Of a DNA stretch of 64,000 nucleotides, positions 313 to 42,090 are shown piece after piece. Position 1 is the first letter of the stretch. Each line of letters opens with the position of its first letter. The translations under genes were made by a program, and so were the position numbers. This DNA is from an uncultured bacterium (GTDB lineage Bacteria > Auribacterota > Erginobacteria > Erginobacterales > Erginobacteraceae): positions 22,232-86,231 of the forward strand of contig CAZPMN010000001.1 in assembly GCA_964587835.1 (NCBI GenBank), in the 5' to 3' direction. The notes beneath the pieces are model-generated. The model had not been told where the DNA came from and did not search any database. It saw nothing but the letters and a program-made list of their open reading frames with translations.

Positions 313-1319
313 TCCGGTACCTGCTGAAAAGGCTGCTGGTCGCGGTTCCCACCCTGGTCGGCATTACCCTGATCACCTTCATTCTGGTCAAGAATATACC
401 CGGAGACCCGATCCATGCGCTGGTCGGGGAGAGGACCTCGGCCGAGGTGATCGAACGCCACCGGACCCGCCTGGGCCTCGACCGCCCCTTCCTGGTGCAG
501 TACGGAAAATTCCTGGGCAATATCCTGCCCCTTAATATTCCGCCTTGCGTCACCGGGGAAGAGGCCGCCGGCGCGGGACGGCGGATTTCGATCTTCAAGG
601 TTCCCTACCTCGGCCGCTCCTACTTCACCGGCAGCCCGGTCAGCCAGATGATCCTGGAGAAGCTCCCGGCCACCGCCCGACTGGCGCTGGGAGCGATGCT
701 GGTGGCCATCCTCTTCGGTCTCGGACTGGGGATGGTCTCCGCCCTCCGGCCGGGAAGTTTCTGGGACCGCCTCTGTTCCCTGCTCGCCATCGGCGGGATA
801 TCCATCCCGGTCTTCTGGGCCGGCCTGATCCTGATCATCGTTTTCGCCTATCACCTGGGCTGGTTCCCCCCCTCGGGGATGGGTTCCGGGGGGCTGATCT
901 TCCTGGTCCTGCCCGCGATCACTCTCGGATCCCGCTCGGCGGCCTACCTGGCGCGGATCACCCGGACCAGTATGCTGGAAGCCGCCGGGTCCGACCATGT
1001 CATCACCGCTCGAGCCAAGGGTCTCTCCCGCTTCCGGGTGGTCCGACGGCATATCTTCCGCAACTCCCTGATTCCGATCGTGACCCTGGCCGGTCTGGAC
1101 TTCGGCTCCTACCTCAACGGGGCGGTCCTGACCGAGACCATCTTCTCCTGGGACGGAGTGGGGCGGCTGGCGATGAACGCCATCCTCCAGCGGGATTACC
1201 CGGTCATCATCGGCTGCGTCCTTTTCGGAGCGGTCATCTTTGTCGCCGCCAACATCCTGGTCGATCTCTCCTACGCCTTGATCGATCCAAGGATCAGGAT
1301 GGGGAATAGTAATCAGTAA
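309..1319 (+). CDS. Peptide/nickel ABC transporter permease (DppB/OppB type)
   Basis: PGDP N-terminal motif, EAA-like [11 protein letters not shown] loop, multiple TM segments; last residues (NSNQ*) come from the heptamer tract. Confidence 0.9.
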
Positions 1320-1405
1320 TCAGTAAGCAGTAAGCAGTAAGCAGTAAGCGGTAAGCGGTAATCAGTAAGCAGTAAGCAGTGAGCGGTAAGCGGTAAGCAG
1401 TGATC
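1308..1405. repeat. Tandem heptamer tract, 14 units of RGT(A/G)A(G/T)C
   Basis: AGTAATC x2, AGTAAGC x4, GGTAAGC, GGTAATC, AGTAAGC x2, AGTGAGC, GGTAAGC x2, AGTGATC read directly. Confidence 0.97.
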
Positions 1406-2233
1406 AGAACGGTGATGAAGTTCTTGAAAAATAGGAAAATCGCCGCGGCGTCCGCGGTCTTTCTTCTCCTGATGGTTCTGGCGGCGCTGCTGGCCCCGTT
1501 GCTCGCTCCCTTCGATCCGAACGGGATCGACCTCGATCGGGTGAGCCAATCGCCCTCCCGCCGTCACCTCTTCGGGACCGACGAGAAGGGTCGGGATATT
1601 TTCAGCCGGGTCCTCTACGGTGCCCGGCTCTCTCTCCTGATCGGGGGAGCAGCCACCGCCGTCTCCCTGGTCATCGGGGCCGCCGTCGGCCTCCTGGGGG
1701 GATATTTCTCCGGCCCGGTCGATTCCTTCTTCGGGATGATTACGGACATCACCCTGGCCTTCCCCGGACTGCTCCTGGCGATCGGGATCACGATCGTCCT
1801 CCCCCCCGGTCTTCTTTCGGTCCTGGCCGCCCTTTCCCTGGTCGGCTGGTCCTCGATCGCCCGGGTGATCCGGGGAGAGACCCTCTCCCTGAAGCGGCGG
1901 GAGTTCGTGGAGGCGGGGAGAGCGGGGGGAGCTTCCCATTTCCGGATCATGTTTCGCCATCTCCTCCCCAACTGCCTGCCCCTGATCCTGGTGGTGGCCA
2001 GCCTCAAGGTCGGTTCCTTCATTCTCGCCGAGTCGGCGCTCAGTTTCCTTGATCTCGGCGTTCGCCCCCCGGCCGCCGCCTGGGGGTTCATGATCAGCGC
2101 CGGCCGGGAATACCTGAAGACCGCCCCCTGGATTTCCTTCTTCCCCGGCCTGGCCCTGGCCCTGACCGTGATCGCTTGCAACCTGCTCGGTGACGCCGCC
2201 CGGGATTTCCTCGACCCCCGGATGAAGGTGTAG
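1400..2233 (+). CDS. Peptide ABC transporter permease (DppC/OppC type); start may be ATG 1415
   Basis: [46 protein letters not shown]. Confidence 0.9.
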
Positions 2234-2234
2234 G

Positions 2235-4220
2235 ATGTCCCCGGAGAAGAAAAAATACGGTCTGAAACGGATCGCCCCCCGGGTCGAGATCGATTACGAC
2301 AAGGAACTCAACCCCCAGCAGCGGGAGGCGGTGCTCGCCCCCGACGGACCGGCTCTGGTCATCGCCGGGGCCGGGAGCGGGAAGACCCGGATCGTCACCT
2401 ATCGGGTCGCCCATCTTTTAGAGCGGGGTATCCGGCCGGAAGAAATCCTGCTTTTGACCTTTACCAAGAAGGCGGCTGAGGAAATGCTCCGCCGGGTCGG
2501 CGATCTCATCCCGGCCGACCTATCCCGGCTCTGGGGAGGGACCTTCCATCACGTCGGCAACCGGGTTCTGCGGAGGCACGCCGAGCTGCTCGGCTTCCGG
2601 CCGAATTACACCATCCTCGACAAGGAGGATTCCCGGGTTCTTTTGGAGGCTTCGGCCCGGGAGATCGGGATCGACACCCGGGGCAAACTCTTTCCCGGGG
2701 GAAGGGTGCTGACGGAGATCATCGGTTACGGCCGGAACACCGGGATCGAGATCTCCGAGGCGGTGGAAGTCAAGGCCTCCCACTTCAGCGAGCTCTCCAC
2801 CCAGATCGAGCGGGTGGCCAAACGCTACCACCAGCGGAAGCGGGACTTGAACTATCTCGACTTCGACGATCTCCTCCTCTTCTTCGAGGAACTCCTCTCC
2901 CGCCACCCCGAGGTCGCCGATCTTTACCGGGGCCGGTTCAAGCATATCCTGGTCGACGAATACCAGGATACCAACCTCATCCAGGCCCGGATCGTCGACT
3001 TGCTCGGCGGAGGGCATGGAAATATAATGGTGGTGGGGGACGATTCCCAGTCGATTTACTCCTTCCGGGGCGCGCTCTTCCGCAATATCCGCGACTTTCC
3101 CCGCCAGTACCCCGGCTGCCGGACCTTCACGGTGGAGACCAACTATCGCTCCACCCCGGAGATCCTCGGTTTCGCCAACCGGGTGATCCAGCGGGCCGAG
3201 GACTCCTTCCGCAAGACCCTCCGCCCGGTGCAGAGACCGGGAGGACTCCCCGCCCTAATCCAGGTGGGCGACATCTACGAGCAGGCGGACTTTGTCGCCC
3301 AGCGGATCACGGAACTGATCGACGAGGGGACCAACCCCTCGGGGATCGCCGTCCTTTATCGTTCGCATTACCACTCGATGGAGGTCCAGATGGAGCTGGC
3401 CCGGCGAGAGATCCCCTTCACCGTCCGCTCCGGAGTGCGTTTTTTCGAACAGGCCCATATCAAGGACGTTCTCTCCTACCTCAAGGTGATCGACAATCCC
3501 CTCGACGAAATCGCCTGGAAACGGATCCTGGTCCGGCTTCCCCGGATCGGTCCCCGGACGGCGGAGAAGATCTGGGCCGCCCTGCTCCGGATTCCCGAAC
3601 CGTTAACCGGTTTGGGAAAACCACCGGTCTCGGAGATCGTCCCCGCCGGCGCCCGGACGGGGTGGGAGGATTTCCGGACCACCATTGAAAAGTTGCGGGA
3701 ACTCGCTTCCCGGGGGCCCTCCCCGTTGATCGAGGCGGTCCTGGAGAGCGGTTACAATTCCTACCTGAAGAGCCAGTTCGCCAACTACGAGCGCCGCCGG
3801 GAGGATCTTATCCAGCTGGCCCGCTACGCCGCACGCTACGAGGACCTGGAACAGTACCTGGACGAGCTGGCGATGATCGGCGGACTGGCGGTCGAGGAGG
3901 TTGAACCGGGGCTGCCCCGGGAGATGGTAGTGCTCAGTACCGTGCACCAGGCCAAGGGACTGGAGTGGGACGCGGTCTTCTTGATCTGGCTGGCGGAAGG
4001 GAAGTTTCCCGTCGCCGCCAGTTTCGGCGATGCGGCCGCCCTGGAGGAGGAGAGGCGGCTTTTCTATGTGGCCGCCACCCGCTGCCGCCGCGAGCTCTAT
4101 CTGCTCCATCCCCTGAACCAGCGCGGCCATTCCGGCCTGGAGACCCTCCAGAGACCGTCGAGGTTTCTCACCGAACTCCCCCCGGACTGCTATGAGCAAT
4201 GGGAGATATATGATATATAG
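2235..4220 (+). CDS. pcrA: UvrD/PcrA-family ATP-dependent DNA helicase
   Basis: AGAGSGKT Walker A, DEYQDTN, STVHQAKGLEW, EERRLFYVAATR. Confidence 0.9.
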   Translation: MSPEKKKYGLKRIAPRVEIDYDKELNPQQREAVLAPDGPALVIAGAGSGKTRIVTYRVAHLLERGIRPEEILLLTFTKKAAEEMLRRVGDLIPADLSRLWGGTFHHVGNRVLRRHAELLGFRPNYTILDKEDSRVLLEASAREIGIDTRGKLFPGGRVLTEIIGYGRNTGIEISEAVEVKASHFSELSTQIERVAKRYHQRKRDLNYLDFDDLLLFFEELLSRHPEVADLYRGRFKHILVDEYQDTNLIQARIVDLLGGGHGNIMVVGDDSQSIYSFRGALFRNIRDFPRQYPGCRTFTVETNYRSTPEILGFANRVIQRAEDSFRKTLRPVQRPGGLPALIQVGDIYEQADFVAQRITELIDEGTNPSGIAVLYRSHYHSMEVQMELARREIPFTVRSGVRFFEQAHIKDVLSYLKVIDNPLDEIAWKRILVRLPRIGPRTAEKIWAALLRIPEPLTGLGKPPVSEIVPAGARTGWEDFRTTIEKLRELASRGPSPLIEAVLESGYNSYLKSQFANYERRREDLIQLARYAARYEDLEQYLDELAMIGGLAVEEVEPGLPREMVVLSTVHQAKGLEWDAVFLIWLAEGKFPVAASFGDAAALEEERRLFYVAATRCRRELYLLHPLNQRGHSGLETLQRPSRFLTELPPDCYEQWEIYDI

Positions 4221-4307
4221 TCAGGCGGGATCCTGAGGAAACCAGATGAGCCCCCCGGCTCTCGTATCCCGGGGGGGACGGCCGACCGTTAAACCGAGGG
4301 CAAGAGA

Positions 4308-5462: not shown

Positions 5463-5492
5463 AATTCGTCCGCCGGACCGCCGGCTGATGGG

Positions 5493-6047: not shown

Positions 6048-6106
6048 ATCCGGTCCCGGATCCGACTGTCAGGTAGGAGCAGGGTCGGAAATATGGGGAT
6101 GCTCTT

Positions 6107-6751: not shown

Positions 6752-6840
6752 ATTCCGTCAACCGAAAAAGAGAGGGGCAAATGGATTCGGATAAGCTCAG
6801 ACCACAGGCCGTCGTTAGCCGGGAGAGGCTTTTGAGATAA

Positions 6841-7515: not shown

Positions 7516-7573
7516 GGGAACTTGTCATAAATAGGAGAGCCTGAGCTTGCCGGGCTGAAAGGGAAAGGAGACG

Positions 7574-7853
7574 ATGGTAGTGACCGAGCGGAAACCGAGA
7601 CAGTATTTTATGGAACATCCCCAGATGGACTTCGAGGTCCAGGTCATCCTGGGCGGCTGCCATTACGGCGCGGCCGACGCCGGGGAAGTTCTGGCCCGGG
7701 CAGTCCCGGGAGGTCTACTAAGCCCTGAGCTGCCCGAGGACGATCGCCCCCTTCACGGCCGCCGAGGGGGCCAACTGGCACTGCCAGCCCAAGGCCCGTG
7801 GGCTTTACGACCAGCGGATGTTCGACTGGCTGGACTCCGTGATGCCGGCCTGA
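7574..7853 (+). pseudogene. Internally deleted alpha/beta-hydrolase relic
   Basis: N-terminus (DFEVQVILGGCHYGAADAGEVLA) joined out of frame to a C-terminus (FWPGQSREVY*ALSCPRT..FTAAEGANWHCQPKARGLYDQRMFDWLDSVMPA*); SD AAGGAG before 7574. Confidence 0.75.
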
Positions 7854-10158: not shown

Positions 10159-10884
10159 ATGAGAAATATTCAAGCCGTTCGGGCCGCCGTTTTTCTGGCG
10201 TTGATGATCCTCCTGGGGTCCTGTGCCGACCGGCCCGCCGCCCGGCCGGAGGAAGATTGGACCGCGGCCCGGAAGCGGATGGTCGACCTGATTAAACGGC
10301 GGGGCATCAGGGACGAAGCGCTGCTCAAGGCGATGATGACCGTCCCCCGCCATCTCTTCATCCCCGAAGGCTACCGGGATACCTGCGACCCTTACGGTGA
10401 TCATCCCTGCCCGATCGGGTACGGACAGACGATCTCCCAGCCCTACATCGTGGCCTATATGACCGAGCGGATGGGGGTCAGGCCGGGGGAGAAGATCCTG
10501 GAGATCGGGACCGGTTCCGGTTACCAGGCCGCGATCCTGGCCGCCCTGGGGGCCGAAGTTTATTCGATCGAGATCGTTCCCGAGCTGGCCGCCCACGCCC
10601 GTCAGGTCCTGACCGCGCAAGGTTTTGACAATGTCCGGGTGCTGGCCGGAGACGGTTACCGCGGGTGGCCGGGGGATATCCTCTTTGACGCCGTGATCGT
10701 CACCGCCGCCCCGAATGAGATACCCGAGAGGCTGGTTGAACAGCTAAAGGACGGAGGGCGGATGATCCTCCCCCTCGGGGACCGGTTTCAGCGTCTGGTG
10801 ATCTGCCGCCAGCGGGGGAAGAAGGTCGAGGTCGAGGAGGACCTTCCGGTTCGCTTTGTTCCCATGGTTCACGGCCGGGAATAA
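10159..10884 (+). CDS. pcm: Protein-L-isoaspartate O-methyltransferase with lipoprotein-like signal
   Basis: VPRHLF, GQTISQPYIVA, LEIGTGSGYQAA, FVPMV; N-terminal LLGSC. Confidence 0.92.
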   Translation: MRNIQAVRAAVFLALMILLGSCADRPAARPEEDWTAARKRMVDLIKRRGIRDEALLKAMMTVPRHLFIPEGYRDTCDPYGDHPCPIGYGQTISQPYIVAYMTERMGVRPGEKILEIGTGSGYQAAILAALGAEVYSIEIVPELAAHARQVLTAQGFDNVRVLAGDGYRGWPGDILFDAVIVTAAPNEIPERLVEQLKDGGRMILPLGDRFQRLVICRQRGKKVEVEEDLPVRFVPMVHGRE

Positions 10885-18911: not shown

Positions 18912-18956
18912 GGTAGCACAGGCGGCTGGTGGCACAGGCGGCCCGCCTGTGCCACC
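18912..18956. repeat. Outlying REP: truncated copy plus perfect 29-bp palindrome
   Basis: GGTAGCACAGGCGGCT then GGTGGCACAGGCG-GCC-CGCCTGTGCCACC. Confidence 0.9.
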
Positions 18957-19446: not shown

Positions 19447-20330
19447 GGATTAGCCGGGGCCGGGAATATTGCCGCCGGGCCGGGGGAGCATTCTGCATCT
19501 TATTGGCCCTCGGCCCCGCCGGGGCGGCGTTTCCGGAGGAAGGATACCGCCGGGTGGAGCTGGAACCCCGGGAGGAGGGAAGCTACCGGGCCCGCTTGCC
19601 GGAACGGGAGGAAGCCCGCTGGAGCGCCCGGTGGGTCCTGGAGAGGGTGGAGGAAGGGCCGCCGGCGGTCTATGCCGTCCGCGACGAGCTGGCGGGGGAG
19701 TTCGGGAGAAAAGACACCCTCCAGACCCGGGTGACCGAGGCCCGTTTCCTCCTCGAAGACGGCCGGATCCGGATGCTTCGAACCGTTCTCACCGTCCGCG
19801 AAGGAGCCGGAGAGATCGTCCGGGTCCTGGAGAAGGATTTCGACCACCGGCTCCGGACCGTCCGGACCGTCGATCTCGATCCCGCCGCCCAGCAAGTCCG
19901 GCGGCAGGAATTCAAGATGGGTGAGGTACTGGTCGACACCAAGGAGATCGTCTCGTACCTTCGGGGTTTCCCCTTTCCGGATTCGTCCGCAGCGGAAGCG
20001 AGTCTCGGCCGGCGGATCGAGTTCAAGCTTCTCAACGAGACCCCCGACACCTACTCGATCCGGGCCGAGTACCAGGGGATCGAGGAGGTGGAGACACCGG
20101 CGGGGACGTTCGCCTGCCATAAGCTGAGGCTGGTTCCCGACCTGGGCATCCTGACCTTTCTCGGCAAGTTGGTCGCCCCCGATCTCTATATGTGGTTTAC
20201 CGTCCACCCCCCGCATTTCTGGGTGAGATACGACGGCCTGGAGGGTGACTTAAAGACCCCCTCCGTCATCTCAGAACTGGTGGATTTCCAAACCTCCGGT
20301 AGCACAGGCGGCTCGCCTGTGATCTGGTAG
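19443..20330 (+). CDS. Secreted hypothetical protein (beta-rich, DUF3108-like)
   Basis: Signal peptide; E.VETPAGTFACHKL motif; ATGA overlap with doxX; stop provided by a REP. Confidence 0.6.
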   Translation: MRISRGREYCRRAGGAFCILLALGPAGAAFPEEGYRRVELEPREEGSYRARLPEREEARWSARWVLERVEEGPPAVYAVRDELAGEFGRKDTLQTRVTEARFLLEDGRIRMLRTVLTVREGAGEIVRVLEKDFDHRLRTVRTVDLDPAAQQVRRQEFKMGEVLVDTKEIVSYLRGFPFPDSSAAEASLGRRIEFKLLNETPDTYSIRAEYQGIEEVETPAGTFACHKLRLVPDLGILTFLGKLVAPDLYMWFTVHPPHFWVRYDGLEGDLKTPSVISELVDFQTSGSTGGSPVIW

Positions 20331-20617
20331 CACAGGCGGCCCGCCTGTGAAGCCGCCAGGCAAATAGGCATTTCGCCCAGGCCGGCGGCCTGGGCCACCA
20401 ATTGCAGGGGGGGGGAGCACAGGCGGTCCGCCTGTGCGAAAAGCTTGGTTGCCTGGTCCTCAACAGGCGAGCCGCCTGTGCTACCGCCATTTTTTCCCTT
20501 TTGCGCACAGGCGAGCCGCCTGTGCTACCGCCATTTTCTCCCTTTTGCGCACAGGCGAGCCGCCTGTGCTACCGCCATTTTTTCCCTTTTGCGCACAGGC
20601 GAGCCGCCTATGCTACC
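20298..20617. repeat. REP cluster downstream of RAYT: 3 forward and 4 reverse copies, the latter as a 44-bp tandem array
   Basis: Consensus GGTAGCACAGGCG-GCT-CGCCTGTG at 20298, 20326, about 20416; reverse copies ending 20485, 20529, 20573, 20617. Confidence 0.95.
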
Positions 20618-20633
20618 GCTACCGCCGGTCGAT

Positions 20634-21144: not shown

Positions 21145-21375
21145 CACAGGCGGGCCGCCTGTGCCACCGCCTGTGCCACCGCCTGTGCCACCCCTGGAAT
21201 TGGTGGCACAGGCCGCCGGCCTGTGCGGCACACCAGGCAACCAGGCATCCCCGCAGGCGGGCCGCCTGTGCCACCCCTGGAATTGGTGGCACAGGCCGCT
21301 GGCCTGTGCGGAACACCAGGCTACCAGCACACCAGGCAACCAGGCCTTCCCCACAGGCGGGCCGCCTGCGCTACC
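21145..21375. repeat. REP/REPIN cluster upstream of RAYT
   Basis: REP copies at 21145, 21202, 21252, 21285, 21352; inverted pairs spaced by CCTGGAATT repeated with 83-bp period; 12-bp partial duplications 21169-21192. Confidence 0.93.
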
Positions 21376-23732: not shown

Positions 23733-23806
23733 GCGCCCGTAGCTCAGATGGATAGAGCGCTTGCCTCCGGAGCAAGAGGTCGCGCGTTCGAATCGCGCCG
23801 GGCGTA
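23733..23806 (+). tRNA. tRNA-Arg (anticodon CCG), CCA not encoded
   Basis: GCGCCCG/CGGGCGT acceptor, TAGCTCAG-TGGATAGAGC D-arm, CTTGC-CTCCGGA-GCAAG, GTTCGAATC T-loop. Confidence 0.95.
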
Positions 23807-23962
23807 TCCTGTGGCGCAGAGCGCAGGGGGCAAAGCGCATGGCGCCCACTTATTCCCCTCCGTTTTTACCCCGCCGGGGGAAGATATTGTTTCTTGCGTT
23901 TTCTCTTTCTGCCGGAATATAATTTTCTCCGATCACCACGTCCCGCCGACGATATAATTAAG

Positions 23963-26776: not shown

Positions 26777-26811
26777 ATTTTTCCGGATAAATTTTCGGAG
26801 AAAATTTATTA

Positions 26812-28170
26812 ATGAAGACCGCTTTCTTCTGCCAGGAGTGCGGGTATAAATCGTTGAAGTGGATGGGGCGTTGCCCGGGTTGCGGGTCCTGGAATTCGCT
26901 GGTGGAGGAGACGGTGGTGACGGAGAAGAAGGGAATCCGTTCCCATCCCCGGTGGGAGAAACAGAGACCGCTGCCGATCAGCGAGATCGAGACCCGGTCC
27001 GATATCCGGACCAGGACCGGTTTGCCGGAGTTCGATCGGATCCTGGGGGGCGGGATCGTGGCCGGTTCCCTGGTCCTGGTCGGGGGCGAGCCGGGGATCG
27101 GGAAGTCGACCATCCTGCTTCAGGTCAGCAACGCCCTCGCCGCCGCCGGCCAGACCGTCCTCTATGTCAGCGGGGAGGAGTCGATCCAGCAGTCGAAACT
27201 GCGGGCCGAGCGGCTGGGGGCCTCCTCTTCCGATCTCTATCTGGTATCGGAGACCAACCTCGACCTGATCCTGGAGTATATCCGGGAGGTCGGACCTTAC
27301 CTGGTAGTCATCGACTCGATTCAGACCGCCTTCCATCCGGAAGTGACTTCGGCTCCCGGTTCGATCGCCCAGGTCAGGGAATGCGCTGCCCGGCTCCTGG
27401 TCGCGGCCAAGTCGGAGGGATTCGCCATCTTTCTGGTCGGGCATGTGACCAAGACCGGCTCGATCGCCGGTCCCCGGGTCCTGGAACATATGGTGGATAC
27501 CGTCCTGTACTTCGAGGGGGACCGCCACCACGCCTACCGTATCCTGCGTTCGGTCAAGAACCGCTTCGGTTCCACCGACGAGATCGGAATCTTCCAGATG
27601 ACCGAGGGGGGGTTGCAGGAGGTGAAAAACCCCTCCGAGATCTTCCTCTCCCAGAGGGAGCCGGGGCTGACCGGCTCGGTGGTCGTTCCCTGCCTGGAGG
27701 GGAAACGGCCGATCTTGGTGGAGATCCAGGCCCTGACCGCCTCCACCGGGCTGGCCATCCCCCGCCGCCGGTCGACCGGGATCGACGTCAACCGGGTTCT
27801 GATCCTGCTGGCGGTCCTGGAGCGGCGGGCCGGGTTGAGAGTGGGGGACAAGGACGTCTTCGTCAACGTGGTCGGGGGAGTGAAGATCTCCGAACCGGCG
27901 GCCGACCTCGGGGTGGTGGCGGCGGTGGCTTCCAACGTCAGGAACGCCCCCATCCCCGCCTCGACCGTGATCCTGGGCGAGGTCGGCCTGGGGGGGGAGG
28001 TGCGGGCGGTCAGGCAGATCGAACAGCGGCTGAAGGAAGCGGCTAAGCTCGGTTTCAAACGGGCGATCATTCCCGCCGCCGGCTCGGACGAAATCCCCAA
28101 GATCCGGGGTCTTGAGGTGGTCCCGGTGCGGAAGATCCGGGAGGCGCTGGGAGCGGCGCTGGGGGGGTGA
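26812..28170 (+). CDS. radA: DNA repair protein RadA/Sms
   Basis: CQECG..GRCPGC zinc finger, GEPGIGKST, KNRFG. Confidence 0.97.
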   Translation: MKTAFFCQECGYKSLKWMGRCPGCGSWNSLVEETVVTEKKGIRSHPRWEKQRPLPISEIETRSDIRTRTGLPEFDRILGGGIVAGSLVLVGGEPGIGKSTILLQVSNALAAAGQTVLYVSGEESIQQSKLRAERLGASSSDLYLVSETNLDLILEYIREVGPYLVVIDSIQTAFHPEVTSAPGSIAQVRECAARLLVAAKSEGFAIFLVGHVTKTGSIAGPRVLEHMVDTVLYFEGDRHHAYRILRSVKNRFGSTDEIGIFQMTEGGLQEVKNPSEIFLSQREPGLTGSVVVPCLEGKRPILVEIQALTASTGLAIPRRRSTGIDVNRVLILLAVLERRAGLRVGDKDVFVNVVGGVKISEPAADLGVVAAVASNVRNAPIPASTVILGEVGLGGEVRAVRQIEQRLKEAAKLGFKRAIIPAAGSDEIPKIRGLEVVPVRKIREALGAALGG

Positions 28171-28199
28171 GTAAGCGGTGAGCAGTGAGCAGTGAGCAG
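28170..28199. repeat. Heptamer tract (4 units), left arm
   Basis: AGTAAGC GGTGAGC AGTGAGC AGTGAGC. Confidence 0.9.
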
Positions 28200-28254
28200 G
28201 TCCCGTCCTGATATAGGTTGTCAAGAGAAGAGTAAGACCTCTCCAAATTATAAT

Positions 28255-28432
28255 GTAGCACCCCGTTGGGGTGCTTGGATGGATAAAACCTGATTGCGAG
28301 TTACCCGGGGTTGCCCGTCTAAAGCCGGATCTTCGACACCCCGGGCTATGATGTAAGACGCCGTTGGCGTCATTGCCTTTCACCCCAAAGGGGTGATACG
28401 TCATAGCCCGGCGGCCGGCCGGCTTTAGGCGG
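28255..28432. mobile_element. Nested palindromic non-autonomous (REPIN/MITE-like) element
   Basis: GTAG-footed GCACCCC-GTT-GGGGTGC; GACGCC-GTT-GGCGTC; TCACCCC-AAA-GGGGTGA; long-range IRs 28341-28351/28401-28411 and 28315-28328/28419-28432. Confidence 0.7.
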
Positions 28433-28516
28433 AGAATCGCCGGGGCCTATTGATGCCATTATAATCAATAGAAAGTGACAATTTAAAATCAGGACGTGAC
28501 AGGTGCCGGCCGGCAA

Positions 28517-28546
28517 CTGCTTACTGCTCACTGCTTACTGCTTACT
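28517..28546. repeat. Heptamer tract (4 units), inverted right arm
   Basis: GCTTACT GCTCACT GCTTACT GCTTACT. Confidence 0.9.
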
Positions 28547-28600
28547 TAGTTTTTGATTATCCATATACCATGGTCTTCACTTTATGACCTTGAATTTGCG

Positions 28601-29338
28601 ATGAAAGCGGGAGCAATAATAGTGGCGGCGGGGGAGGGGAGGCGGATGCGGGGACGGGATAAACTCTTCCATCCGCTGGGCCCGGATCCCCTTCTGGCGG
28701 TGACCATCCGGGCTTTTCAGGATCATCCCGGGATCGACGGTATTGTCCTGGTCGCCGGGGACCGGGTCCGGGAACGGTTCCGCAAGGAATTGCTCCCGAG
28801 GTACGGTTTTTCCAAGGTCCTGGCCGAGGTCGCCGGCGGCCGCCGCCGGCAGGGCTCCGTTTACCGCGGGCTCAAGGCCTTCGACCCGCCTCCGGAGCTG
28901 GTTTTGATCCACGATGGCGACCGACCCTTTGTCAGCCAAGAGAATATCTCCGCGGTTTTGGCCGGCGCCTCCTCCGGGGGAGCGATTGCCGCGGTGGCGG
29001 TTAAGGATACTGTGAAAAGAGTGGACTCCGATGGGTTGATCATCGATACTCCGGATCGGCAGCAGCTGCGCCTGGCCCAGACCCCACAGGGTTTCCCCTT
29101 TGCGGTGATTCTGGCCGCCCACGAAAGGGCTCGAGCGGCGGGTTGGGAGGTCACCGACGATGCTGCCCTGGCCGAGGGGGAGGGGATCCGGGTGCGCACG
29201 GTGTCCGGGAGCTACGATAACATCAAGATCACCACCCCGGAGGATCTGCTCCTGGCCGAGACGATCCACTCCCACCGGCAACAGGGTATTGAACCGCAAA
29301 GACGCAAAGAACGCAAAGGATCGCAGAGGGAGATTTAA
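28601..29338 (+). CDS. ispD: 2-C-methyl-D-erythritol 4-phosphate cytidylyltransferase
   Basis: AAGEGRRM, RQGSV, IHDGDRP, AQTPQGF, NIKITTPEDL. Confidence 0.93.
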   Translation: MKAGAIIVAAGEGRRMRGRDKLFHPLGPDPLLAVTIRAFQDHPGIDGIVLVAGDRVRERFRKELLPRYGFSKVLAEVAGGRRRQGSVYRGLKAFDPPPELVLIHDGDRPFVSQENISAVLAGASSGGAIAAVAVKDTVKRVDSDGLIIDTPDRQQLRLAQTPQGFPFAVILAAHERARAAGWEVTDDAALAEGEGIRVRTVSGSYDNIKITTPEDLLLAETIHSHRQQGIEPQRRKERKGSQREI

Positions 29339-29633
29339 AGTACAAGTTCGGGGGTACTATCTATCTGAAATCCGCCGGGTTGTTAAAAGTTCAAGCGTTT
29401 GGAGAAGCGATCCCAATCCTCCCGCCGGGCAATTTGCCTTTTGGCCGGGTGAGTTTGCTTCGTCCCCCTCACTCCGTTCGGGGACCTCGCAATGACCGGA
29501 TTATTGACAATAAATATAATTGCTGGACATACCCTGTCACCTTGCCTGTTCAAAAGCTGTTCGGAACCGGATACTATAAAATTTCCTTTCTTTGCGTTCT
29601 TTGCGTTCTTTGCGTTCTTTGCGTCTTTGCGGT
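29293..29633. mobile_element. Nonamer-repeat inverted-repeat element between ispD and ispF
   Basis: ACCGCAAAGACGCAAAGAACGCAAAG at 29293-29318 and its exact reverse complement at 29608-29633. Confidence 0.75.
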
Positions 29634-29660
29634 GAATATTTTTTCTTCTGAAAGGTAATT

Positions 29661-30140
29661 ATGAGAGTGGGGATCGGATATGACATTCACCGCCTGGTCG
29701 AGGGGCGGAAACTGGTCCTGGGGGGGGTGGAGTTGGAATCCGACCGGGGTCTGCTCGGGCACTCCGATGCCGACGTCCTCACCCACGCGGTCTGCGACGC
29801 CCTGCTGGGTGCGGCCGGGCTGGGGGATATCGGCCGGCATTTTCCCGACACCGACGAGCACTATCGGGGGATCTCCAGCCTGAAGCTGCTGACCGAGGTC
29901 GCGAATATGATCGCGGAAAGAAGGCTCCGGGTCGAGAATATCGACGTCGTCGTGGTCTTAGAACGGCCCAAAATTGCCCCCCTGGCCGGAGAGATGGCCC
30001 AGAACCTGGCCGGGGCGCTGGGGATCGAACCGGAGAGGATCAATATCAAGGCCGCCACCAACGAAAAGCTAGACGCGGTTGGTTCCGGAGAGGCGATCGC
30101 CGCCTGGACGGTCGCCGGGCTGAAAGAGGAAGGAGAGTGA
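29661..30140 (+). CDS. ispF: 2-C-methyl-D-erythritol 2,4-cyclodiphosphate synthase
   Basis: RVGIGYDIH, GHSDADV, GDIGRHFPD. Confidence 0.97.
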   Translation: MRVGIGYDIHRLVEGRKLVLGGVELESDRGLLGHSDADVLTHAVCDALLGAAGLGDIGRHFPDTDEHYRGISSLKLLTEVANMIAERRLRVENIDVVVVLERPKIAPLAGEMAQNLAGALGIEPERINIKAATNEKLDAVGSGEAIAAWTVAGLKEEGE

Positions 30141-31624
30141 TGGCCGACCTTTATCTCTACAATACCAGAACCAGGAAGAAAGAGCTCTTCCAGCCCCTGG
30201 AGCCGGACCGGGTCCGAATGTATGTCTGCGGGGTTACCGTTTACGATTACTGCCATCTCGGTCACGCCCGCTGTTACGTGGCCTTCGACATCGTTCACCG
30301 ATACCTCGAGTATCTCGGTTACCGGGTCACCTACGTTCAGAACATCACCGATCTCGACGACAAACTGATCTCCCGGGCCCGGCAGGAAGGCGGAGGGGGG
30401 GGAATCAAGCAGCGGGTGGCCCGGCTGGCGCAGAAGTTCACCCGAGCCTACTTCGAGGATATGGACCGGCTGAATATCCTCCGCGCCGATGCCTATCCCA
30501 TGGCCACCGCGAATATCCACCGGATGCAGGAGATCATCTCCGTTCTCCTCGAAAAGGGGGTTGCCTACCGGCGGGGAGGGGACGTCTACTTCGAGGTGGC
30601 CGCCTTCCCCGGCTACGGCGAGCTCTCCGGCAAAAAGCCAGAAGACCTGCGGTCGGGGGCCCGGGTGGCGGTGGACGAGAAGAAGAAAAGCCCGCTCGAC
30701 TTCGCCCTCTGGAAAGAAGCGGTGGAGGGAGAGCCGGCCTGGTCCAGCCCCTGGGGCCCGGGGCGCCCCGGCTGGCATATCGAGTGCAGCGCGATGAGCA
30801 TCAAGCTGCTCGGGGAGACCTTCGACATCCACGGGGGCGGCCAGGACCTGGTCTTCCCCCACCACGAGAACGAACGGGCCCAGTCAGAGGCGTTTTCCGG
30901 CAAGCCCTTTGCCCGCTACTGGTTGCACAACGGATTCGTCACCATCAACCAGGAGAAGATGTCAAAGTCGCTGGGCAACGTCTTCAATCTGCGGGATATC
31001 TTCCGGTCCTTCCCCCCCCGGGTGGTCAGGTTCTTCCTCCTCGGCCAGCATTACCGCTCTCCCGTCGACTACAGCGCCGAGGCCCTTCAGGAAGCCGGTC
31101 GGGCCCTCTTCCGAATTGATAATTGTTATGGGATGGCCCGGATGAGCGGAGAGGACATTTTTTCTCTTCCTCCGGATCCGGAGGTTATGAGTAACTTCAA
31201 TGCGGCGATGAGCGATGATTTCAACACCGCCGCCGCCCTGGCCGGTGTTTACAAAATTGTCGAGGAATACTACAAGAACTATCGAAAGCCGAAATGGCCG
31301 GCCGGCTTGCCCTCCCGGCTGTCGGCGGTTAACCAGATCTGCGGCGTGCTCGGGGTCGACCTGGTTGATCCGATCCACGAGCTGCCCCCGATTGCCAGGA
31401 TTTCCGATTACCCGGGATTGGCTGATCGGATCATTAGGGAGAATAAGTTGACCGAGGGGAATCTTCAGGCGCTGGTTTCCTGCCGGGAGTGGGCCCGGCA
31501 AGAGGAGAACTGGGAGCTTTCGGACCGGATCCGCGATTACCTGAAAGAACGGGGGGTGGCGGTAATGGACCGGAAGGGAAAGAGTACCGCCGCGGTTTAT
31601 TACCCAGAACAACTCGACCGGTAA
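30140..31624 (+). CDS. cysS: Cysteine--tRNA ligase
   Basis: CGVTVYDYCHLGH, PGWHIECSAM, HHENE, KMSKS. Confidence 0.97.
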   Translation: MADLYLYNTRTRKKELFQPLEPDRVRMYVCGVTVYDYCHLGHARCYVAFDIVHRYLEYLGYRVTYVQNITDLDDKLISRARQEGGGGGIKQRVARLAQKFTRAYFEDMDRLNILRADAYPMATANIHRMQEIISVLLEKGVAYRRGGDVYFEVAAFPGYGELSGKKPEDLRSGARVAVDEKKKSPLDFALWKEAVEGEPAWSSPWGPGRPGWHIECSAMSIKLLGETFDIHGGGQDLVFPHHENERAQSEAFSGKPFARYWLHNGFVTINQEKMSKSLGNVFNLRDIFRSFPPRVVRFFLLGQHYRSPVDYSAEALQEAGRALFRIDNCYGMARMSGEDIFSLPPDPEVMSNFNAAMSDDFNTAAALAGVYKIVEEYYKNYRKPKWPAGLPSRLSAVNQICGVLGVDLVDPIHELPPIARISDYPGLADRIIRENKLTEGNLQALVSCREWARQEENWELSDRIRDYLKERGVAVMDRKGKSTAAVYYPEQLDR

Positions 31625-31647
31625 TTAAAGCCAGGAGAGCGGAATAA

Positions 31648-31763
31648 CCAATATTCAACAAGGAATATCCAATGAAGAAGGAAAGCCGGTGCGCCATTCG
31701 GCGCGCCCGGCTGGCTGTGCCGCCCTTGGTTATTGGATATTCCTTGTTGGCTGTTGGATATTG
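31648..31763. repeat. AT-rich inverted-repeat element with internal GC hairpin
   Basis: 18-bp perfect IR CAACAAGGAATATCCAAT 31656-31673 / 31732-31749. Confidence 0.8.
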
Positions 31764-31792
31764 AAAAAGGCGAAGAGCCCAAGACTGGCTAA

Positions 31793-31899
31793 GGTTAGGG
31801 TTACGAAGCCCGTATCGGTCAGGGTAACGGTTACGGAAAAACCCGGGCCCGCCTGACCCCTAACCGTAACCGAAACGGGCCTCTTAGCCCTAACCGTAA
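31793..31899. repeat. Hexamer-based (GGTTAG/GGTTAC/GGTAAC) imperfect inverted repeat
   Basis: GGTTAGGG/CCCTAACC, GCCCGT/ACGGGC and GGTCAG/CTGACC arm pairs. Confidence 0.65.
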
Positions 31900-31919
31900 A
31901 AGTTCATTACGGAGGTACA

Positions 31920-32570
31920 ATGAAGGGAACATTCATAACTTTCGAAGGCGGAGAGGGGAGCGGAAAGAGTACCCAGGCCCGGCTCCTGGCCGGATACTTG
32001 AAACAGAAGGGATACGACGTGCTGGCCACCCGGGAACCGGGGGGAACCGAGATCGGGGACGCCATCCGGGCCATCCTCCTCAGCCCGGAATGTTCGGAGA
32101 TGGGGAATGTAACCGAGCTGCTGCTCCTGGCGGCCAGCCGGGCCCAGAATGTCTGCGAAAGGATCAAGCCGGGTCTGGAGAGGGGAGCGGTGGTGATCTG
32201 CGACCGCTTCATCGACAGTACCCTGGCCTACCAGGGCTACGGGCGGAATTTCGATCTCAATCTCCTGGAGGCCCTCAACCGTCTCGCCACCGGTGGAGTT
32301 ACCCCGGACCTGACCATCCTGCTCGATCTGCCGGTGGAGACTGGTTTGCAACGGGCAAAGGATCTCGACAAGCTGGAGTCGAAATCCGGGGAGGGTGACC
32401 GGATCGAGCAGCTGGATATCGAATTTCACCGGCGGTTGAGAAAGGGCTTCCTGGAACTGGCCGCCCGGGAACCGGACCGCTTCCGGGTTCTGGAGATCAC
32501 CGAAGGCATCGAAGCCACCCAGGAGAAAGTGGCGGCCATCGTGGAAGAGTTCTTAGAGGGCCGGGGGTAG
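31920..32570 (+). CDS. tmk: Thymidylate kinase
   Basis: FEGGEGSGKST, TREPGGT, DRFIDSTLAYQG. Confidence 0.97.
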   Translation: MKGTFITFEGGEGSGKSTQARLLAGYLKQKGYDVLATREPGGTEIGDAIRAILLSPECSEMGNVTELLLLAASRAQNVCERIKPGLERGAVVICDRFIDSTLAYQGYGRNFDLNLLEALNRLATGGVTPDLTILLDLPVETGLQRAKDLDKLESKSGEGDRIEQLDIEFHRRLRKGFLELAAREPDRFRVLEITEGIEATQEKVAAIVEEFLEGRG

Positions 32571-32574
32571 CCCG

Positions 32575-33729
32575 GTGCCGTTCGCGATGCTTTGGGAGAC
32601 CGTCCAGGGACAGGCGAGAGCGGTTGACCTTCTCCGGCGGTCGATCAGCCAGGATCGGGTGGTCAGCGGATATCTCTTCACTGGGCCCGAAGGGGTGGGG
32701 AAGTCCCTGGCCGCCACGGTCTTCGCCCAGGCCCTGAACTGTCCGGTCCGGCCCGGCCAGGGTTGCGGGGAATGCCCGGCCTGTCGGGAAATCGCCCAAG
32801 GGGGGTATCCCGATCTCCACCGTCTGACTCCCTCCAGTAAGTCACGGTTGATCACCGTCGACCAGATCCGGGAGATGCGCCGCTCGGTTTATCAGTCCGC
32901 CCGAGGCGATAACTGGAAGATCTTCCTGCTGGAGGAGGCTGATCGGATGAACCTGGCGGCCCAGAACGCCTTCCTCAAAACACTGGAAGAACCCCCGCCG
33001 AAAACGGTTCTGATCCTGATCACGTCCCAGCCGGGACGGCTTCTCTCCACCATCCGGAGCCGCTGCCAAGTGGTTTCCTTCGCCGCCTGGCCTCTGACCT
33101 TGATGAAGCCGTTTATCGAAGAGAGAACCGAACTGTCCGGGGATCAGTGCGCCGTTCTTCACGCTCTCTCCGCCGGCTGTCCCGGCCGGGCGCTCCGCTA
33201 CCATCGCGAAGATATTTTGGAAACCCGCCGGGAGGTTATCGGCCCCCTGTTCGACGGCCCGCCACTCTCCGCCCGGGCGGTTTCCGAACTGGCCGAGACT
33301 TGGCTCGATATCTGTGATCGGATTGGCCGGGCCGCGGGCCGACACTTGAAGAAAGAAGTAACCCGGCGGGATCAGGACCTGGACGCGAGGAGCCGCCAGG
33401 AACTGGAGAAACAGGATAAAGCCCGGATCGCCGCCGCCGAACTGGCTGGGCTGGATCTGATTTTTCAATTGATCTTCATCTGGATACGTGATTTGTTTCT
33501 CTACTCCTCGCTCGGCCCGCCGGCTCCCCTGATCAACCGGGACCTTTCCGACCAGGTGGCCCGCTCGGCCCGGCGGTTCACCGTTGAACGTCTCCGACTG
33601 CTACCGGGAAAGATCGCCGAAAGCCACCGGTGGGCGGTTCGGGCGGTCGGGCGGTCGTCCCGCCGTCTGGTTTTGGAAAATATGCTGATTGAACTCGGTT
33701 TCTGGATCCCCAGCCGTCGGGCCGGGTGA
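32575..33729 (+). CDS. holB: DNA polymerase III delta-prime subunit
   Basis: GPEGVGK, CGECPAC, AQNAFLKTLEEPP, TIRSRC. Confidence 0.92.
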   Translation: MPFAMLWETVQGQARAVDLLRRSISQDRVVSGYLFTGPEGVGKSLAATVFAQALNCPVRPGQGCGECPACREIAQGGYPDLHRLTPSSKSRLITVDQIREMRRSVYQSARGDNWKIFLLEEADRMNLAAQNAFLKTLEEPPPKTVLILITSQPGRLLSTIRSRCQVVSFAAWPLTLMKPFIEERTELSGDQCAVLHALSAGCPGRALRYHREDILETRREVIGPLFDGPPLSARAVSELAETWLDICDRIGRAAGRHLKKEVTRRDQDLDARSRQELEKQDKARIAAAELAGLDLIFQLIFIWIRDLFLYSSLGPPAPLINRDLSDQVARSARRFTVERLRLLPGKIAESHRWAVRAVGRSSRRLVLENMLIELGFWIPSRRAG

Positions 33730-34580: not shown

Positions 34581-34635
34581 CTCCCGGCCCGATCAGCCGG
34601 CGTTTCCGGTGCCGGCGCCGGGACCGGGTTTGATT

Positions 34636-36204: not shown

Positions 36205-36225
36205 AGCATCAACCAGGTTAAGAAA

Positions 36226-39578: not shown

Positions 39579-39601
39579 CCCCGCCCCCCCCATATTTCTG
39601 A

Positions 39602-39864
39602 ACCGCAAAGAACGCAAAGATCCGAAGGATTTAAACCACAGAGGACACAGAGAGCACAGAGCAGCGGGCGAATACCTGGGTTGAAAATCAGGGGGAGCGA
39701 GCTACTCTCGCTCCCCCGCTAAGATAATCCAGATCGGAAAAGATAGTTTTCCGAGCTCGGATTCTCTTCGCGGGGGGCTCGGGATCTTCGATCCCGGCCC
39801 CCTGATTTTCAACCCAGGTATTCCCGGCCTTGGCGGCCCTTTGCGTTCTTTGCGTCTTTGCGGT
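39602..39864. mobile_element. Composite MITE-like element: nonamer arms enclosing a 154-bp element with 26-bp perfect TIRs
   Basis: GAATACCTGGGTTGAAAATCAGGGGG 39670-39695 and reverse complement 39798-39823; internal hairpins; outer ACCGCAAAGAACGCAAAG / CTTTGCGTTCTTTGCGTCTTTGCGGT. Confidence 0.8.
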
Positions 39865-39875
39865 GAATGATTTTT

Positions 39876-41957
39876 TCAGCTCTCCCGGCGGGCAGCGACG
39901 ATTTCCTCGGCCAGGGTGTAGGGTACCGCCTCGTAGTGCTCGAAGTGCATTGAGAAGTCGGCCTTGCCGCTGGTGATGGTCCGTAGTTCGGTGGAGTATC
40001 CGAACATCTGAGAGAGGGGGACCATCCCGGAGATCACCGCCGTCTTTCCCTTGGTTTCCATCCGAACGATCCTGCCCCGTTTGGCACCGAGGGAACCGGT
40101 GACCGCTCCCAGATACTCGTCCGGTGCGGTGATCTCAATATTCATCACCGGTTCCAGCAAACGTAACCCCGCCTTCCGACAGGCGTCCCGGAAACCGGCG
40201 GCGGCACAGGTCCGGAAGGCCTGCTCCGATGAGTCGACCTCGTGGGCGGAGCCGTCCACCAGGAAAAATTTGACATCGATCATCGGGAATCCGCTGTAGG
40301 GTCCCTTGGCCATTGCATCCAGGACTCCCCGCTCAACCGCCGGGATATACTCCCGGGGAACCCGGCCTCCTCGAACCTCGTTTTCAAACTGGAACCCGGC
40401 GCCCGAGCGGTTCGGCTCGATCCGGAATTCGATATGGGCATACTGGCCGTGTCCCCCGGTCTGCTTGACATGCTTGTGGACGTGTTCGCACGACCCCAGG
40501 ATTGTTTCCCGGTAAGCGACTTGAGGAGCGCCGGATTCCACATTGACGTCGAATTCCCGGCGGAGCCGATCGAGAATAACGTCCAGGTGGAGTTCCCCCA
40601 TCCCGGAAATGACCACCTCGTCGGTCTCCTGGTCGGTCCGGATGACGAAGGTGGGGTCTTCGTCCGAGAGGCGGGAGAGGGCTTTGGAGAGGCGGTCCCG
40701 GTCGACAGTGCTCTCCGGTTTGACCGCGACCCCGATAACCGGGATGGGAAATTCGATTGACTCCAGAACGATCGGGTGGTTTTTGCTGCAGATGGTATCT
40801 CCGGTCCGGGTTTCGCTCATCCCGACCACCGCTCCCACGCCACCGGCCCGGAGTTCCTCCACCGCAATTTGCTTGTTGGCGTGCATCTCGAAGAGCCTTC
40901 CCACCCGCTGATCTATGCCCCGGGTGGAGTTGTGGTAGCTCTCCCCCGCCCGGAGTATCCCGGAGTAAACCCGCAGATAGAGCAGCTTCCCCATATGTTT
41001 GTCGGCGGTGATCTTGAAGGCGAGGGCCGCCAGAGGGGCGTCGTCTTTCGGATGACGGATGATCTCGCTGTCTTCCTCGTCCAGGGTCCCGATGACCGGG
41101 GGAAGATCGGCTGGGGAAGGGAGGTAGTTGACGATGGAGTCGAGGAGGAAGCGGATCCCCTTGTTTTTGAAGGCCGCCCCGCAAAGGACGGGTATTACCT
41201 TTCCGGCAATTGTGGTATTGCGCAGGGCGCGAACGATTTCAGCTTTCTGAGGAGTTTCGCCGTTGACAAATTTCTCCATCAGACTCTCGTCCTCTTCGCT
41301 GATCTTTTCGATCAAAAGCGCCCGGGCCTCTTCGGCCTGCCCTTGCATATCGGTGGGGATTTCGTCTTCCCGAGGAAGGGCCAATCCGCCGTTTTCCTGA
41401 TAATAGATCGCCCTCATCTCCACCAGGTCGATGATTCCCTTAAAATCCGCCTCCGCCCCGATCGGGATGGCGATCGGAACCGCATTGGCCCCCAATTCCT
41501 GCCGGATTTCGGAGATCACACCCGCAAAATCAGCCCCTGCCCGGTCCATCTTGTTGATAAACGCCAGCCGGGGTACCGAGTATTTTTCCGCCTGGCGCCA
41601 GACCGTCTCGGATTGGGGCTGGACCCCGCCCACGGCGCAGAAGAGAGCGATGGTGCCGTCCAGGACCCGGAGCGATCTCTCCACCTCCGCCGTGAAGTCG
41701 ACGTGTCCGGGGGTGTCGATGATGTTGATTCGATGCCCCTTCCAGTAGGTGGTGGTGGCGGCGGAGGTGATGGTAATTCCCCGTTCCTGTTCCTGAATCA
41801 TCCAGTCCATGGCGGCTTTCCCGTCGTGAACCTCTCCGATCTTGTGGCTCTTGCCCGTGTAAAATAAAATCCGCTCGGTGACGGTAGTCTTGCCGGCGTC
41901 GATATGGGCGGTCAGGCCGATATTGCGGATATTGCCGATTGGAAAAATATCACTCAT
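39876..41957 (-). CDS. fusA: Elongation factor G, stand-alone copy
   Basis: [32 protein letters not shown]. Confidence 0.95.
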
Positions 41958-41962
41958 AATTA

Positions 41963-42090
41963 CCTATTCTCTATTCCCTATTACTGCTCACTGCTCACTG
42001 ATTACTACTCACTGATTACTGCTCACTAATTACTAATTACTGATTACTGATTACTGATTACTGATTACTGATTACTGATTACTGATTACT
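41963..42090. repeat. Heptamer tract, 16 units (7 perfect GATTACT) plus CTATT-type units
   Basis: GATTACT/GCTCACT/AATTACT units 41979-42090; same family as 1308-1405 on the opposite strand. Confidence 0.97.

Follow-up and report, generated by a model that had tools for sequence, protein, structure and literature searches.

Tandem-repeat hairpins at gene junctions of an uncultured sediment bacterium: candidate gene-less relatives of rRNA intervening sequences

Where arrays of tandem 6-9-mers are lodged between housekeeping genes, do they represent the remains of a mobile unit, punctuation deployed by the host, or the outcome of ordinary microsatellite slippage? The question is raised by a stretch of 64,000 nucleotides (GenBank assembly GCA_964587835.1, contig CAZPMN010000001.1, positions 22,232 to 86,231 of the forward strand; hereafter the window, with all coordinates counted from its first letter) from an uncultured sediment bacterium of a lineage resembling the Planctomycetes-Verrucomicrobia-Chlamydiae (PVC) group. 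A first-pass annotation made from the letters alone had described several repeat families at its gene junctions, and had proposed that these were empty shells or landing sites of a poorly described mobile unit. The explanation favoured here, at a probability of about 0.55, is that the arrays are long-lived, gene-less hairpin elements of the type known as intervening sequences (IVS), members of a widespread class that probably act as RNA stems. The structure of the elements, their distribution, their association with particular genes, their persistence and their lack of target duplications are all matters of observation, and are documented in the sections that follow.

Paired arrays and hairpins in the window

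Analysis with Tandem Repeats Finder (TRF) and an inverted-repeat scan recovered all of the arrays previously noted, at seven sites between 1308 and 42090; the gene names dppB/C, radA, ispD, ispF, cysS and tmk were likewise confirmed. The prior description of the arms as inverted held at five sites, and failed at dppB|dppC and the fusA leader, each of which contains a single array. The flanking genes are of a housekeeping nature (DppB/C-like permeases, RadA, IspD, IspF, CysS, Tmk); no rRNA was found within the window, and the elements lie between protein-coding genes. The tandem arrays are real and far above chance: relative to shuffled sequence, 28 matches to two successive RGTRAKC units were recorded where 0.01 were expected, six to CGCAAAGNNCGCAAAG against 0.03, and seven to two successive GGTTAS units against 0.46.

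Minimum free energy (MFE) folds demonstrated that each of the five inverted pairs, the arms of which are 26-39 nt long and 82-100% complementary by the inverted-repeat scan, forms the basal stem of a 130-400 nt hairpin with a z-score of between -5.6 and -13.1 (radA|ispD, -13.1, at an MFE of -213.7; ispD|ispF, -5.6; lptD|fusA, -11.0; cysS|tmk, -8.5). Copies are dispersed within the window, with two nonamer and three heptamer loci, and in the source metagenome the word depth of the arms is 10-20 times that of the genes, indicating that the repeat families are multi-copy in the source community. The hairpin interiors hold only short open reading frames (ORFs), and tblastn with both the PF13366 and PF05635 seeds detected neither genes nor remnants of these two families in the window.

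At radA|ispD, the left heptamer arm (28170-28208, forward strand; AGTGAGC type) abuts the radA stop codon TGA (28168-28170), and the right arm (28508-28546, reverse strand), which is followed by TTAGTTTTTG, lies upstream of the ispD ATG at 28604. These two 39-nt arms, recognised by both the inverted-repeat scan and the fold, are 85% complementary and 299 nt apart, and the intervening loop (28209-28507) is a nested palindromic insert of 299 nt with an inner inverted repeat of its own (28200-28225 / 28476-28501) and a structured core at approximately 28290-28440. Other copies of this insert in Logan contigs contain joints that skip 248 and 105 nt, and it could be either a small mobile element or an RNA gene. 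Its core is a conserved multi-hairpin, CCCGGGCTATGATGT...ACGTCATAGCCCGG, with no Rfam match.

The ispD|ispF junction carries a left nonamer arm, GAACCGCAAAGACGCAAAGAACGCAAAGG (29291-29328, forward strand), and a right arm consisting of five copies of TTCTTTGCG and ending in GCGGTGAA (29586-29636, reverse strand), both of the CGCAAAGAA type, which are 100% complementary over 26 nt and bracket 257 nt (29329-29585) partly conserved in related species. IspD reads through the left arm for 15 additional residues, EPQRRKERKGSQREI, to a stop codon at 29336-29338, the ancestral stop having been lost in the window; in relatives the protein ends ...RRQK. Beyond the right arm lie a T-run (29639-29645), a Shine-Dalgarno sequence and the ispF ATG at 29661. 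Within the loop, a promoter-like site on the forward strand (29492-29520; one match to the consensus, at 10 of 12 positions) and a conserved AT box, TATAAAAT, directly preceding the right arm give a hint that transcription of ispF might be re-started there. The same interior contains, at 29460-29500, a short hairpin motif of the GTCATTGCGAGG type, also present in other community contigs (near 31765, run X2), which represents a further small dispersed palindrome nested in hairpin loops.

The second nonamer hairpin occupies the convergent lptD|fusA junction, where a left arm of the CGCAAAGAA type (39600-39621, forward strand) and a right arm, CTTTGCGTTCTTTGCGTCTTTGCGGTGAA (39839-39867, reverse strand; 39839-39876 with its T-run), were identified by the inverted-repeat scan and bracket 217 nt. 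The nested content (39637-39823; TRF and fold) comprises, besides a CACAGAGRA array (39637-39661), an inner inverted repeat that is perfect over 26 nt (39670-39695 / 39798-39823) and encloses yet more hairpins. The right ends of the two nonamer hairpins are 97% identical over 39 nt, a similarity that extends beyond the repeat itself, and both right arms terminate in GGTGAA (29631-29636 and 39862-39867), the left ends being GAACC rather than TCACC.

Two successive hairpins are present at cysS|tmk. The first (31643-31762; inverted-repeat scan and fold) has arms of the AATATCCAA type at 31643-31681 and 31724-31762 that enclose a GC-rich apical hairpin, in place of which other copies in Logan contigs carry different loops; the second (31787-31900; fold and motif count) has arms of GGTTAS hexamers.

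Both single arrays were detected by TRF. The dppB|dppC array (1308-1405, forward strand) consists of some 13-14 heptamers, AGTAAGC, GGTAAGC or AGTAATC (AGTAAKC), with the dppB stop TAA (1317-1319) inside it and the dppC ATG at 1415. The arrays of the fusA leader (41959-42093, reverse strand; approximately 19 units), in the order three AGGGAAT-type units and then 16 of AGTAATC/AGTGAGC (ATTACTG x16, 41980-42090), immediately precede the fusA start codon and likely form its 5' leader. The former view that the arrays occur only between genes is thus too strict, given the dppB and radA stops in the first units of their arrays and the IspD residues read through an arm.

At 23733-23845, tRNA-Arg(CCG) is followed, at most 7 nt later, by a degenerate GGCGCAG heptamer array (23813-23845) that is possibly a decayed arm of the same superfamily.

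The same junctions in related species

The proteins of the window most closely resemble, at 60-71% identity, named proteins from metagenome-assembled genomes of the 'PVC group', Ca. Auribacterota and Ca. Aureabacteria, and an origin in Geobacter, which the style of the repeats had suggested, was rejected on these grounds. Syntenic loci from five related species, the IspD of which is 73-78% identical to that of the window, confirmed that nonamer arms are present at ispD|ispF in all five, and at lptD|fusA in every relative read there. Judged by these sequence comparisons, most arms are old, being at the same junctions in five species. The ispD|ispF gap measures 188-240 bp in all relatives, and the junction is not the tight one formerly supposed. 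The right nonamer arm is identical at 28-31 of 32 nt (88-97%) across the five species, compared with 73-80% for flanking coding DNA, and where its units do differ both arms have changed together, those of L130 being CGCGGAG and those of the other species CGCAAAG. A T-run lies 3' of the right arm in 5/5 copies from this lineage, as opposed to 20 of 119 elsewhere, a result suggesting that the hairpins may terminate or stabilise the upstream message.

At other junctions the profiles differed from species to species. A short-loop heptamer hairpin followed by T-runs is present at radA|ispD in L002 and L006, a single three-unit array is present in L004, and a homologue of the core of the radA|ispD insert is located at uvrD|pda in a relative (L281, 5835-6300). 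The ispF and cysS genes, which overlap in the window, are separated in L002 by a 172-bp hairpin with hexamer arms, and cysS|tmk has two, one or no hairpins according to species, the GGTTAS hairpin being kept in L006 and absent from L002. The mobile insertion originally proposed was consequently supported by presence and absence at ispF|cysS, cysS|tmk and uvrD|pda and by the 299-bp radA|ispD insert, and was not supported by the majority of arms, which are persistent. Taken as a whole, the hairpins of this lineage appear to resemble long-term residents of the REPIN type more than recent insertions.

An insert of approximately 30 nt, CCTTCGACTTCGCTCAGGATCTTCGAC, interrupts a left arm of nonamer type in each of two species, at a different junction in each (L009, ~10700-10745; L128, ~7535-7570), and resembles the very small dispersed repeats reported from cyanobacteria.

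Cargo genes, exact arms across phyla, and phage hairpins

A 23-nt piece of the nonamer arm was found to be exact in more than 118 stretches of DNA from over ten phyla, the carriers among the matches listed belonging to the Chloroflexota, Acidobacteriota, Cyanobacteriota (including cultured Calothrix and Dulcicalothrix), Pseudomonadota, Planctomycetota, Thermodesulfobacteriota, Nitrospinota, Armatimonadota, Bacteroidota, Latescibacterota and Bacillota. Hairpins of 67-255 bp without an ORF account for 68/77 of the paired nonamer elements, and with gene-less copies so far outnumbering gene-bearing ones the phrase 'empty shells or landing sites' was a fair one. In five other loci (L053, L114, L035, L070, L026), nonamer-type arms, identical in L053 and L035 to those of the window, enclose a gene of about 126 residues, which starts a few bases after the left arm, uses an AAGGA Shine-Dalgarno sequence supplied by that arm, and stops just a few bases short of the right arm. 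Its product is a GxxExxY protein (TIGR04256, E 1e-48; PF13366, PD-(D/E)XK).

A metagenome scan for GxxExxY genes, based on an alignment of these enclosed proteins, returned 80 loci. Inverted arms surround 55 of the 72 genes for which both flanks were available, compared with 1 of 111 displaced controls, and the association that the first-pass annotation had mentioned was thereby borne out. All of the arms conform to TTCACC, some three RCRRAG-type 8-9-mers and a terminal GGTGAA, with units that include CGCAAAG, CGCAGAG, CACAGAG, CACGGAG, CGCGGAG, CGCCGAG, CACGAAG and CAGTGAG/CAATGAG. Since these units are shared, the nonamer and CACAGAG families of the window constitute one superfamily, to which the CAGTGAG heptamer may be related; the supposition that the 7-mer and 9-mer families are unrelated is not supported on present evidence, with CAGTGAG, CACAGAG, CGCAGAG and CGCAAAG all serving as arms of one gene family. 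Full cassettes (L208, L218, L265, L248, L210) often contain a second, inner pair of small hairpins just within the arms, with conserved loops reading TGAGAGG upstream and CCTCTCA downstream of the GxxExxY gene.

The GxxExxY proteins with nonamer arms are 54-73% identical to one another. Vertical descent cannot account for arms that are the same from one phylum to another and better conserved than the proteins between them; hence either the arms move with the genes or they are held by a sequence-specific partner. The copies that carry a gene specify GxxExxY or IVS proteins and no known transposase, and the target duplications looked for as a mark of mobility were largely lacking, with no direct repeat at 99 of 124 elements, the flanks of which often extend the inverted repeat instead (TTC/GAA). 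The lack of duplications and the palindromic flanks, together with the nesting recorded at 28170-28546 and 39600-39867, would fit insertion into the loops of existing hairpins.

The second association mentioned there, with genes for four-helix-bundle proteins, also held. In L027 a gene of PF05635 (23S rRNA-intervening-sequence protein) lies between AGGATTCA / CTTGAATC arms, and on plasmids of cultured cyanobacteria heptamer arrays abut five of the six such genes examined. These arrays are inverted GGGAGTA x8 / TCCCTAC x5 between nrdB and nrdA in Nostoc edaphicum pNe_5 (L285), AAAGGGA / TCCCTTT in Geminocystis, GGAGTCA in N. punctiforme, direct (AAAAGCT)17 and (AAAAGCC)10 between cas6 and cas4 in Pseudanabaena galeata pPg_01 (L284), and CTCTGCC, on one side, in PCC 7120. 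The gene and its arrays may therefore be found inside otherwise functional gene pairs, as with cas6/cas4 and nrdB/nrdA. In 1.8 Mb of fetched loci, a search for four-helix-bundle genes with an iterated profile recovered nothing beyond the seed. The small cargo ORF that the full-length elements had been expected to share was encountered in other bacteria, as GxxExxY or PF05635, and was not found in the window or in some 260 kb from related species.

The heptamer pattern was also matched in 59 stretches of viral contigs. A recurrent group of tailed phages with a GC content of 0.57-0.63 was apparent among these (L189, IMGVR_UViG_3300044824_000335; L154; L152; and about 15 further loci within L137-L195), with PHROG matches to tape measure, tail, tail assembly and methyltransferase proteins. 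Along one 14-kb stretch of phage DNA containing a structural operon, long hairpins are present at 11 of 13 junctions in the order stop codon, left arm, loop, right arm, Shine-Dalgarno sequence and ATG, without a T-run; the arms consist of CAGTRAT, CAGTGAT or CAGTGGC units, and the predicted helices extend over 27-84 base pairs. Such a load of hairpins in a structural operon suggests a role in expression, the alternative being that the elements are extraordinarily invasive, and their presence at nearly every junction argues for function in expression as opposed to mere debris. The best analogy is phage T7, in which RNase III processing hairpins lie between the genes of a long transcript, the T7 sites however being unique sequences and not microsatellite arms. 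The heptamer unit common to this phage group and the arrays of the window points either to a possible host link or to an expression device of the phage.

Known relatives, rival explanations and significance

Several published systems share this architecture. The IVS of Coxiella 23S rRNA has a 28-bp terminal stem that contains 2-3 tandem GACAGAT heptamers, strain-variable in number, and is cut within by RNase III; the element encloses S23p (PMC4990558). More generally the 23S IVS of Coxiella, Leptospira and Salmonella, like the window elements, have terminal inverted repeats that form a stem of about 20-30 bp; they differ in being located in helix 25 or 45 of the rRNA rather than between protein-coding genes, and in having a loop that can hold an S23p four-helix-bundle gene (PF05635), whereas the window loops lack ORFs and hold other palindromic inserts. 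The GGGAATC / GGGGAYT heptamers of Xanthomonas and Nostoc described by Rehm et al. in 2015 are 89-93% intergenic, lie near or overlap the upstream stop codon, form 70-75 convergent pairs per Xanthomonas genome, and occupy loci that are conserved between species and not linked to mobile elements (PMC4692102). The window arrays are of this same type, that of the short tandemly repeated repetitive sequences (STRRs), as tandem intergenic 7-mers that abut an upstream stop and form convergent pairs; by way of contrast, the Xanthomonas/Nostoc units are G-rich, those of the window are not and include 6- and 9-mers, and a link to cargo genes and IVS is drawn here and not for the Xanthomonas/Nostoc repeats. 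In Geobacter metallireducens, Aklujkar et al. (2009) recorded dozens of opposite-strand pairs of 3-5 tandem 7-9-mers, intergenic and at variable distance, which were divided into classes 1-3 and read as IHF/HU global-regulator sites (PMC2700814). Their units have other sequences, no hairpin or cargo gene was linked to them, and ISGme8/9 insert beside them.

Repetitive extragenic palindromes (REPs) and their REPIN doublets resemble the window elements as abundant, gene-less intergenic hairpins at orthologous loci without target duplications. They differ in that REPs are species-specific imperfect palindromes whereas the window arms are tandem repeats, and in that the movement of REPINs is attributed to a single dedicated gene acting in trans, RAYT (IS200/IS605-type, Y1 HUH), whereas the candidate partners here, in a putative role, are PD-(D/E)XK and four-helix-bundle proteins. 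Compared with a miniature inverted-repeat transposable element, the window has the multiple dispersed copies and lacks both the target-site duplication and a transposase-encoding relative; compared with a GxxExxY cassette, it has the RCRRAG-type arms, in the nonamer family only, and lacks an enclosed PF13366/PF05635 gene. An intrinsic terminator has a GC-rich stem and a short loop, with a U-run directly behind; of these features the T-run is found 3' of the right arm in all five copies from this lineage and short loops at radA|ispD in L002 and L006, the window loops being of 100-300 nt and not called by a consensus scan. A phase-variable repeat would switch a neighbouring surface or adaptive gene by changes in copy number, and the genes beside the window arrays are of the housekeeping kind.

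With the architecture already known elsewhere under other names, the window is not categorically new. The papers on the Coxiella IVS and those of Rehm and Aklujkar draw no link between the repeats and IVS or both gene families, the GxxExxY family is mentioned only in passing in the literature searched, and the connection between repeats, two gene families, rRNA IVS and a phage group appears to be undescribed. It is tentatively proposed that STRRs, Xanthomonas heptamers, Geobacter sites and rRNA IVS are one phenomenon, a distinct mobile class of many phyla and their phages in which GxxExxY, S23p and Avd-like genes would be the autonomous members and gene-less hairpins their far commoner derivatives, unable to move alone, or their targets. 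Insertion would proceed without duplication and by preference into hairpin loops, and would be tolerated because the arms allow the insert to be removed from the RNA or to do no harm there, as in the 23S IVS.

For the window itself, the favoured explanation of IVS-type elements would operate as follows. An element has arms of about three or more tandem 7-9-nt units, in its nonamer form (T)TCACC-[RCRRAG+2]n ... GGTGAA, the same architecture that elsewhere encloses GxxExxY or four-helix-bundle genes and forms the 23S rRNA IVS. In this lineage the hairpins have long been resident at fixed junctions, abutting or overlapping the upstream stop, while their arms have changed by unit slippage matched on both sides and their loops have become nests for palindromic inserts. 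Transcribed with the operon, the arms would pair into a 22-39 bp stem serving as a processing site of the RNase III type (by analogy with IVS, stems of this length should be RNase III substrates) and/or, where a T-run follows, as a terminator or 3' stabiliser. An insertion of this kind would cause little damage and might have been co-opted as punctuation between cistrons. Action at the level of RNA is what we infer from this structure, with spread being effected by a cargo nuclease in trans or by recombination between arms.

A number of observations weigh against this explanation. Neither the window nor some 260 kb of sequence from its relatives showed a gene of PF13366 or PF05635, as a result of which a mobiliser acting in trans is unproven, and for the heptamer, AATATCCAA and GGTTAS families the connection to cargo genes is one of analogy only. 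The dppB|dppC and fusA-leader arrays behave as ordinary microsatellites. The covariation of variable arm positions among 126 elements, with 96-100% pairing at most of the positions listed, speaks for the explanation, but its figures are inflated by an element detector that demanded 21 of 26 complementary bases. Strand asymmetry is mixed, with folding favouring the sense strand at 10 of 12 co-directional bacterial junctions (which are not independent of each other) and the antisense strand at 6 of 9 in the phage. Links from one arm to the other depend on the original assembly, the Logan contigs ending within arms.

The best of the rival explanations, possible if somewhat doubtful, holds that the arrays are non-mobile host punctuation, either sequence-specific sites bound by a DNA- or RNA-binding factor peculiar to the lineage or terminator and processing hairpins by which neighbouring cistrons are insulated, on which small selfish genes merely land. 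It would account for the same family being found at the same junction in five species, for arms that evolve more slowly than coding DNA, for the invariant CAGT within heptamer units, for the phage CAGTRAT hairpins, for the T-run in all copies from this lineage, and for the promoter-like site and TATAAAAT box in the ispD|ispF loop; it also accords with the regulator-site reading of Aklujkar (PMC2700814) and with the conserved loci near stops of Rehm (PMC4692102). It is confronted by near-identical 23-nt arms in more than ten phyla, which vertical descent cannot give, by presence and absence at several junctions, and by RCRRAG arms so tightly and specifically tied to one gene family as to imply that arms and gene travel together.

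That the arrays are ordinary microsatellites, arising by independent slippage in AT-poor intergenic DNA with inverted pairing incidental, is unlikely, and for the paired arms is already contradicted by perfect 26-nt complementarity at two loci, 39-nt shared ends that run beyond the repeat at two loci, compensatory changes on both arms, and arms identical across phyla and associated with a gene family. The single arrays are the material that suits it, in that orthologues of dppB|dppC contain 2, 5, 5 and 13 heptamers of drifting unit sequence and the fusA leader has (AGGGAAT)5-8 in two relatives but no array in a third; gradual slippage, which the first-pass annotation had itself set against mobility, was thus seen at both sites. 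The strain-to-strain variation of heptamer number in Coxiella is of the same kind (PMC4990558).

Structures other than B-form DNA, in the shape of G-quadruplexes or cruciforms that affect replication or recombination, are a highly improbable explanation. Rehm et al. read their repeats as G-quadruplex formers and demonstrated such folding for GGGAATC (PMC4692102), units of the AGGGAAT type are present in the fusA leader of both the window and its relatives, and long perfect inverted repeats can extrude cruciforms, but the main units AGTAAGC, CGCAAAGAA, AATATCCAA and GGTTAS are devoid of G-tracts. Least credible of all is an artefact of false joins at repeats in a metagenome-assembled genome, for although Logan contigs stop within the arms, where alternative continuations are present, those of an independent run (X1) tile 26800-32600 without differences, left arms are contiguous with their genes, and the gene order, like the arm family at a given junction, recurs in five independently assembled relatives.

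In a search of the whole window against Rfam, only the tRNA reached gathering scores, the junctions giving sub-threshold matches at the level of chance, and a megablast search of plasmids with the region gave zero matches. GC-rich REP-like palindromes, GGTAGCACAGGCGGnCCGCCTGTGC, which include a 44-bp unit repeated 3.6 times and are unrelated to the microsatellite arms, are clustered at 18924-18956, 20297-20619 and 21145-21375. A perfect 23-nt palindrome within 52557-52609 lies upstream of an ORF of more than 3600 codons (52911-64000) that runs off the window and contains proline/threonine-rich repeats of 18-48 nt at 61.7-62.7 kb; the gene that precedes it has 120-nt repeats (51833-52270).

Should the unifying proposal be correct, the STRR heptamers, the Xanthomonas GGGAATC repeats, the Geobacter pairs and the 23S IVS would share one architecture and perhaps one mechanism, and a testable role would be provided for two very common gene families, GxxExxY and 'four helix bundle / S23 ribosomal protein'. 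In practical terms the arms fragment short-read assemblies, lengthen or shorten gene calls, as in the tail of IspD, and may mark sites of RNA processing, while the shared heptamer could link an uncultured phage group to the hosts that carry it.

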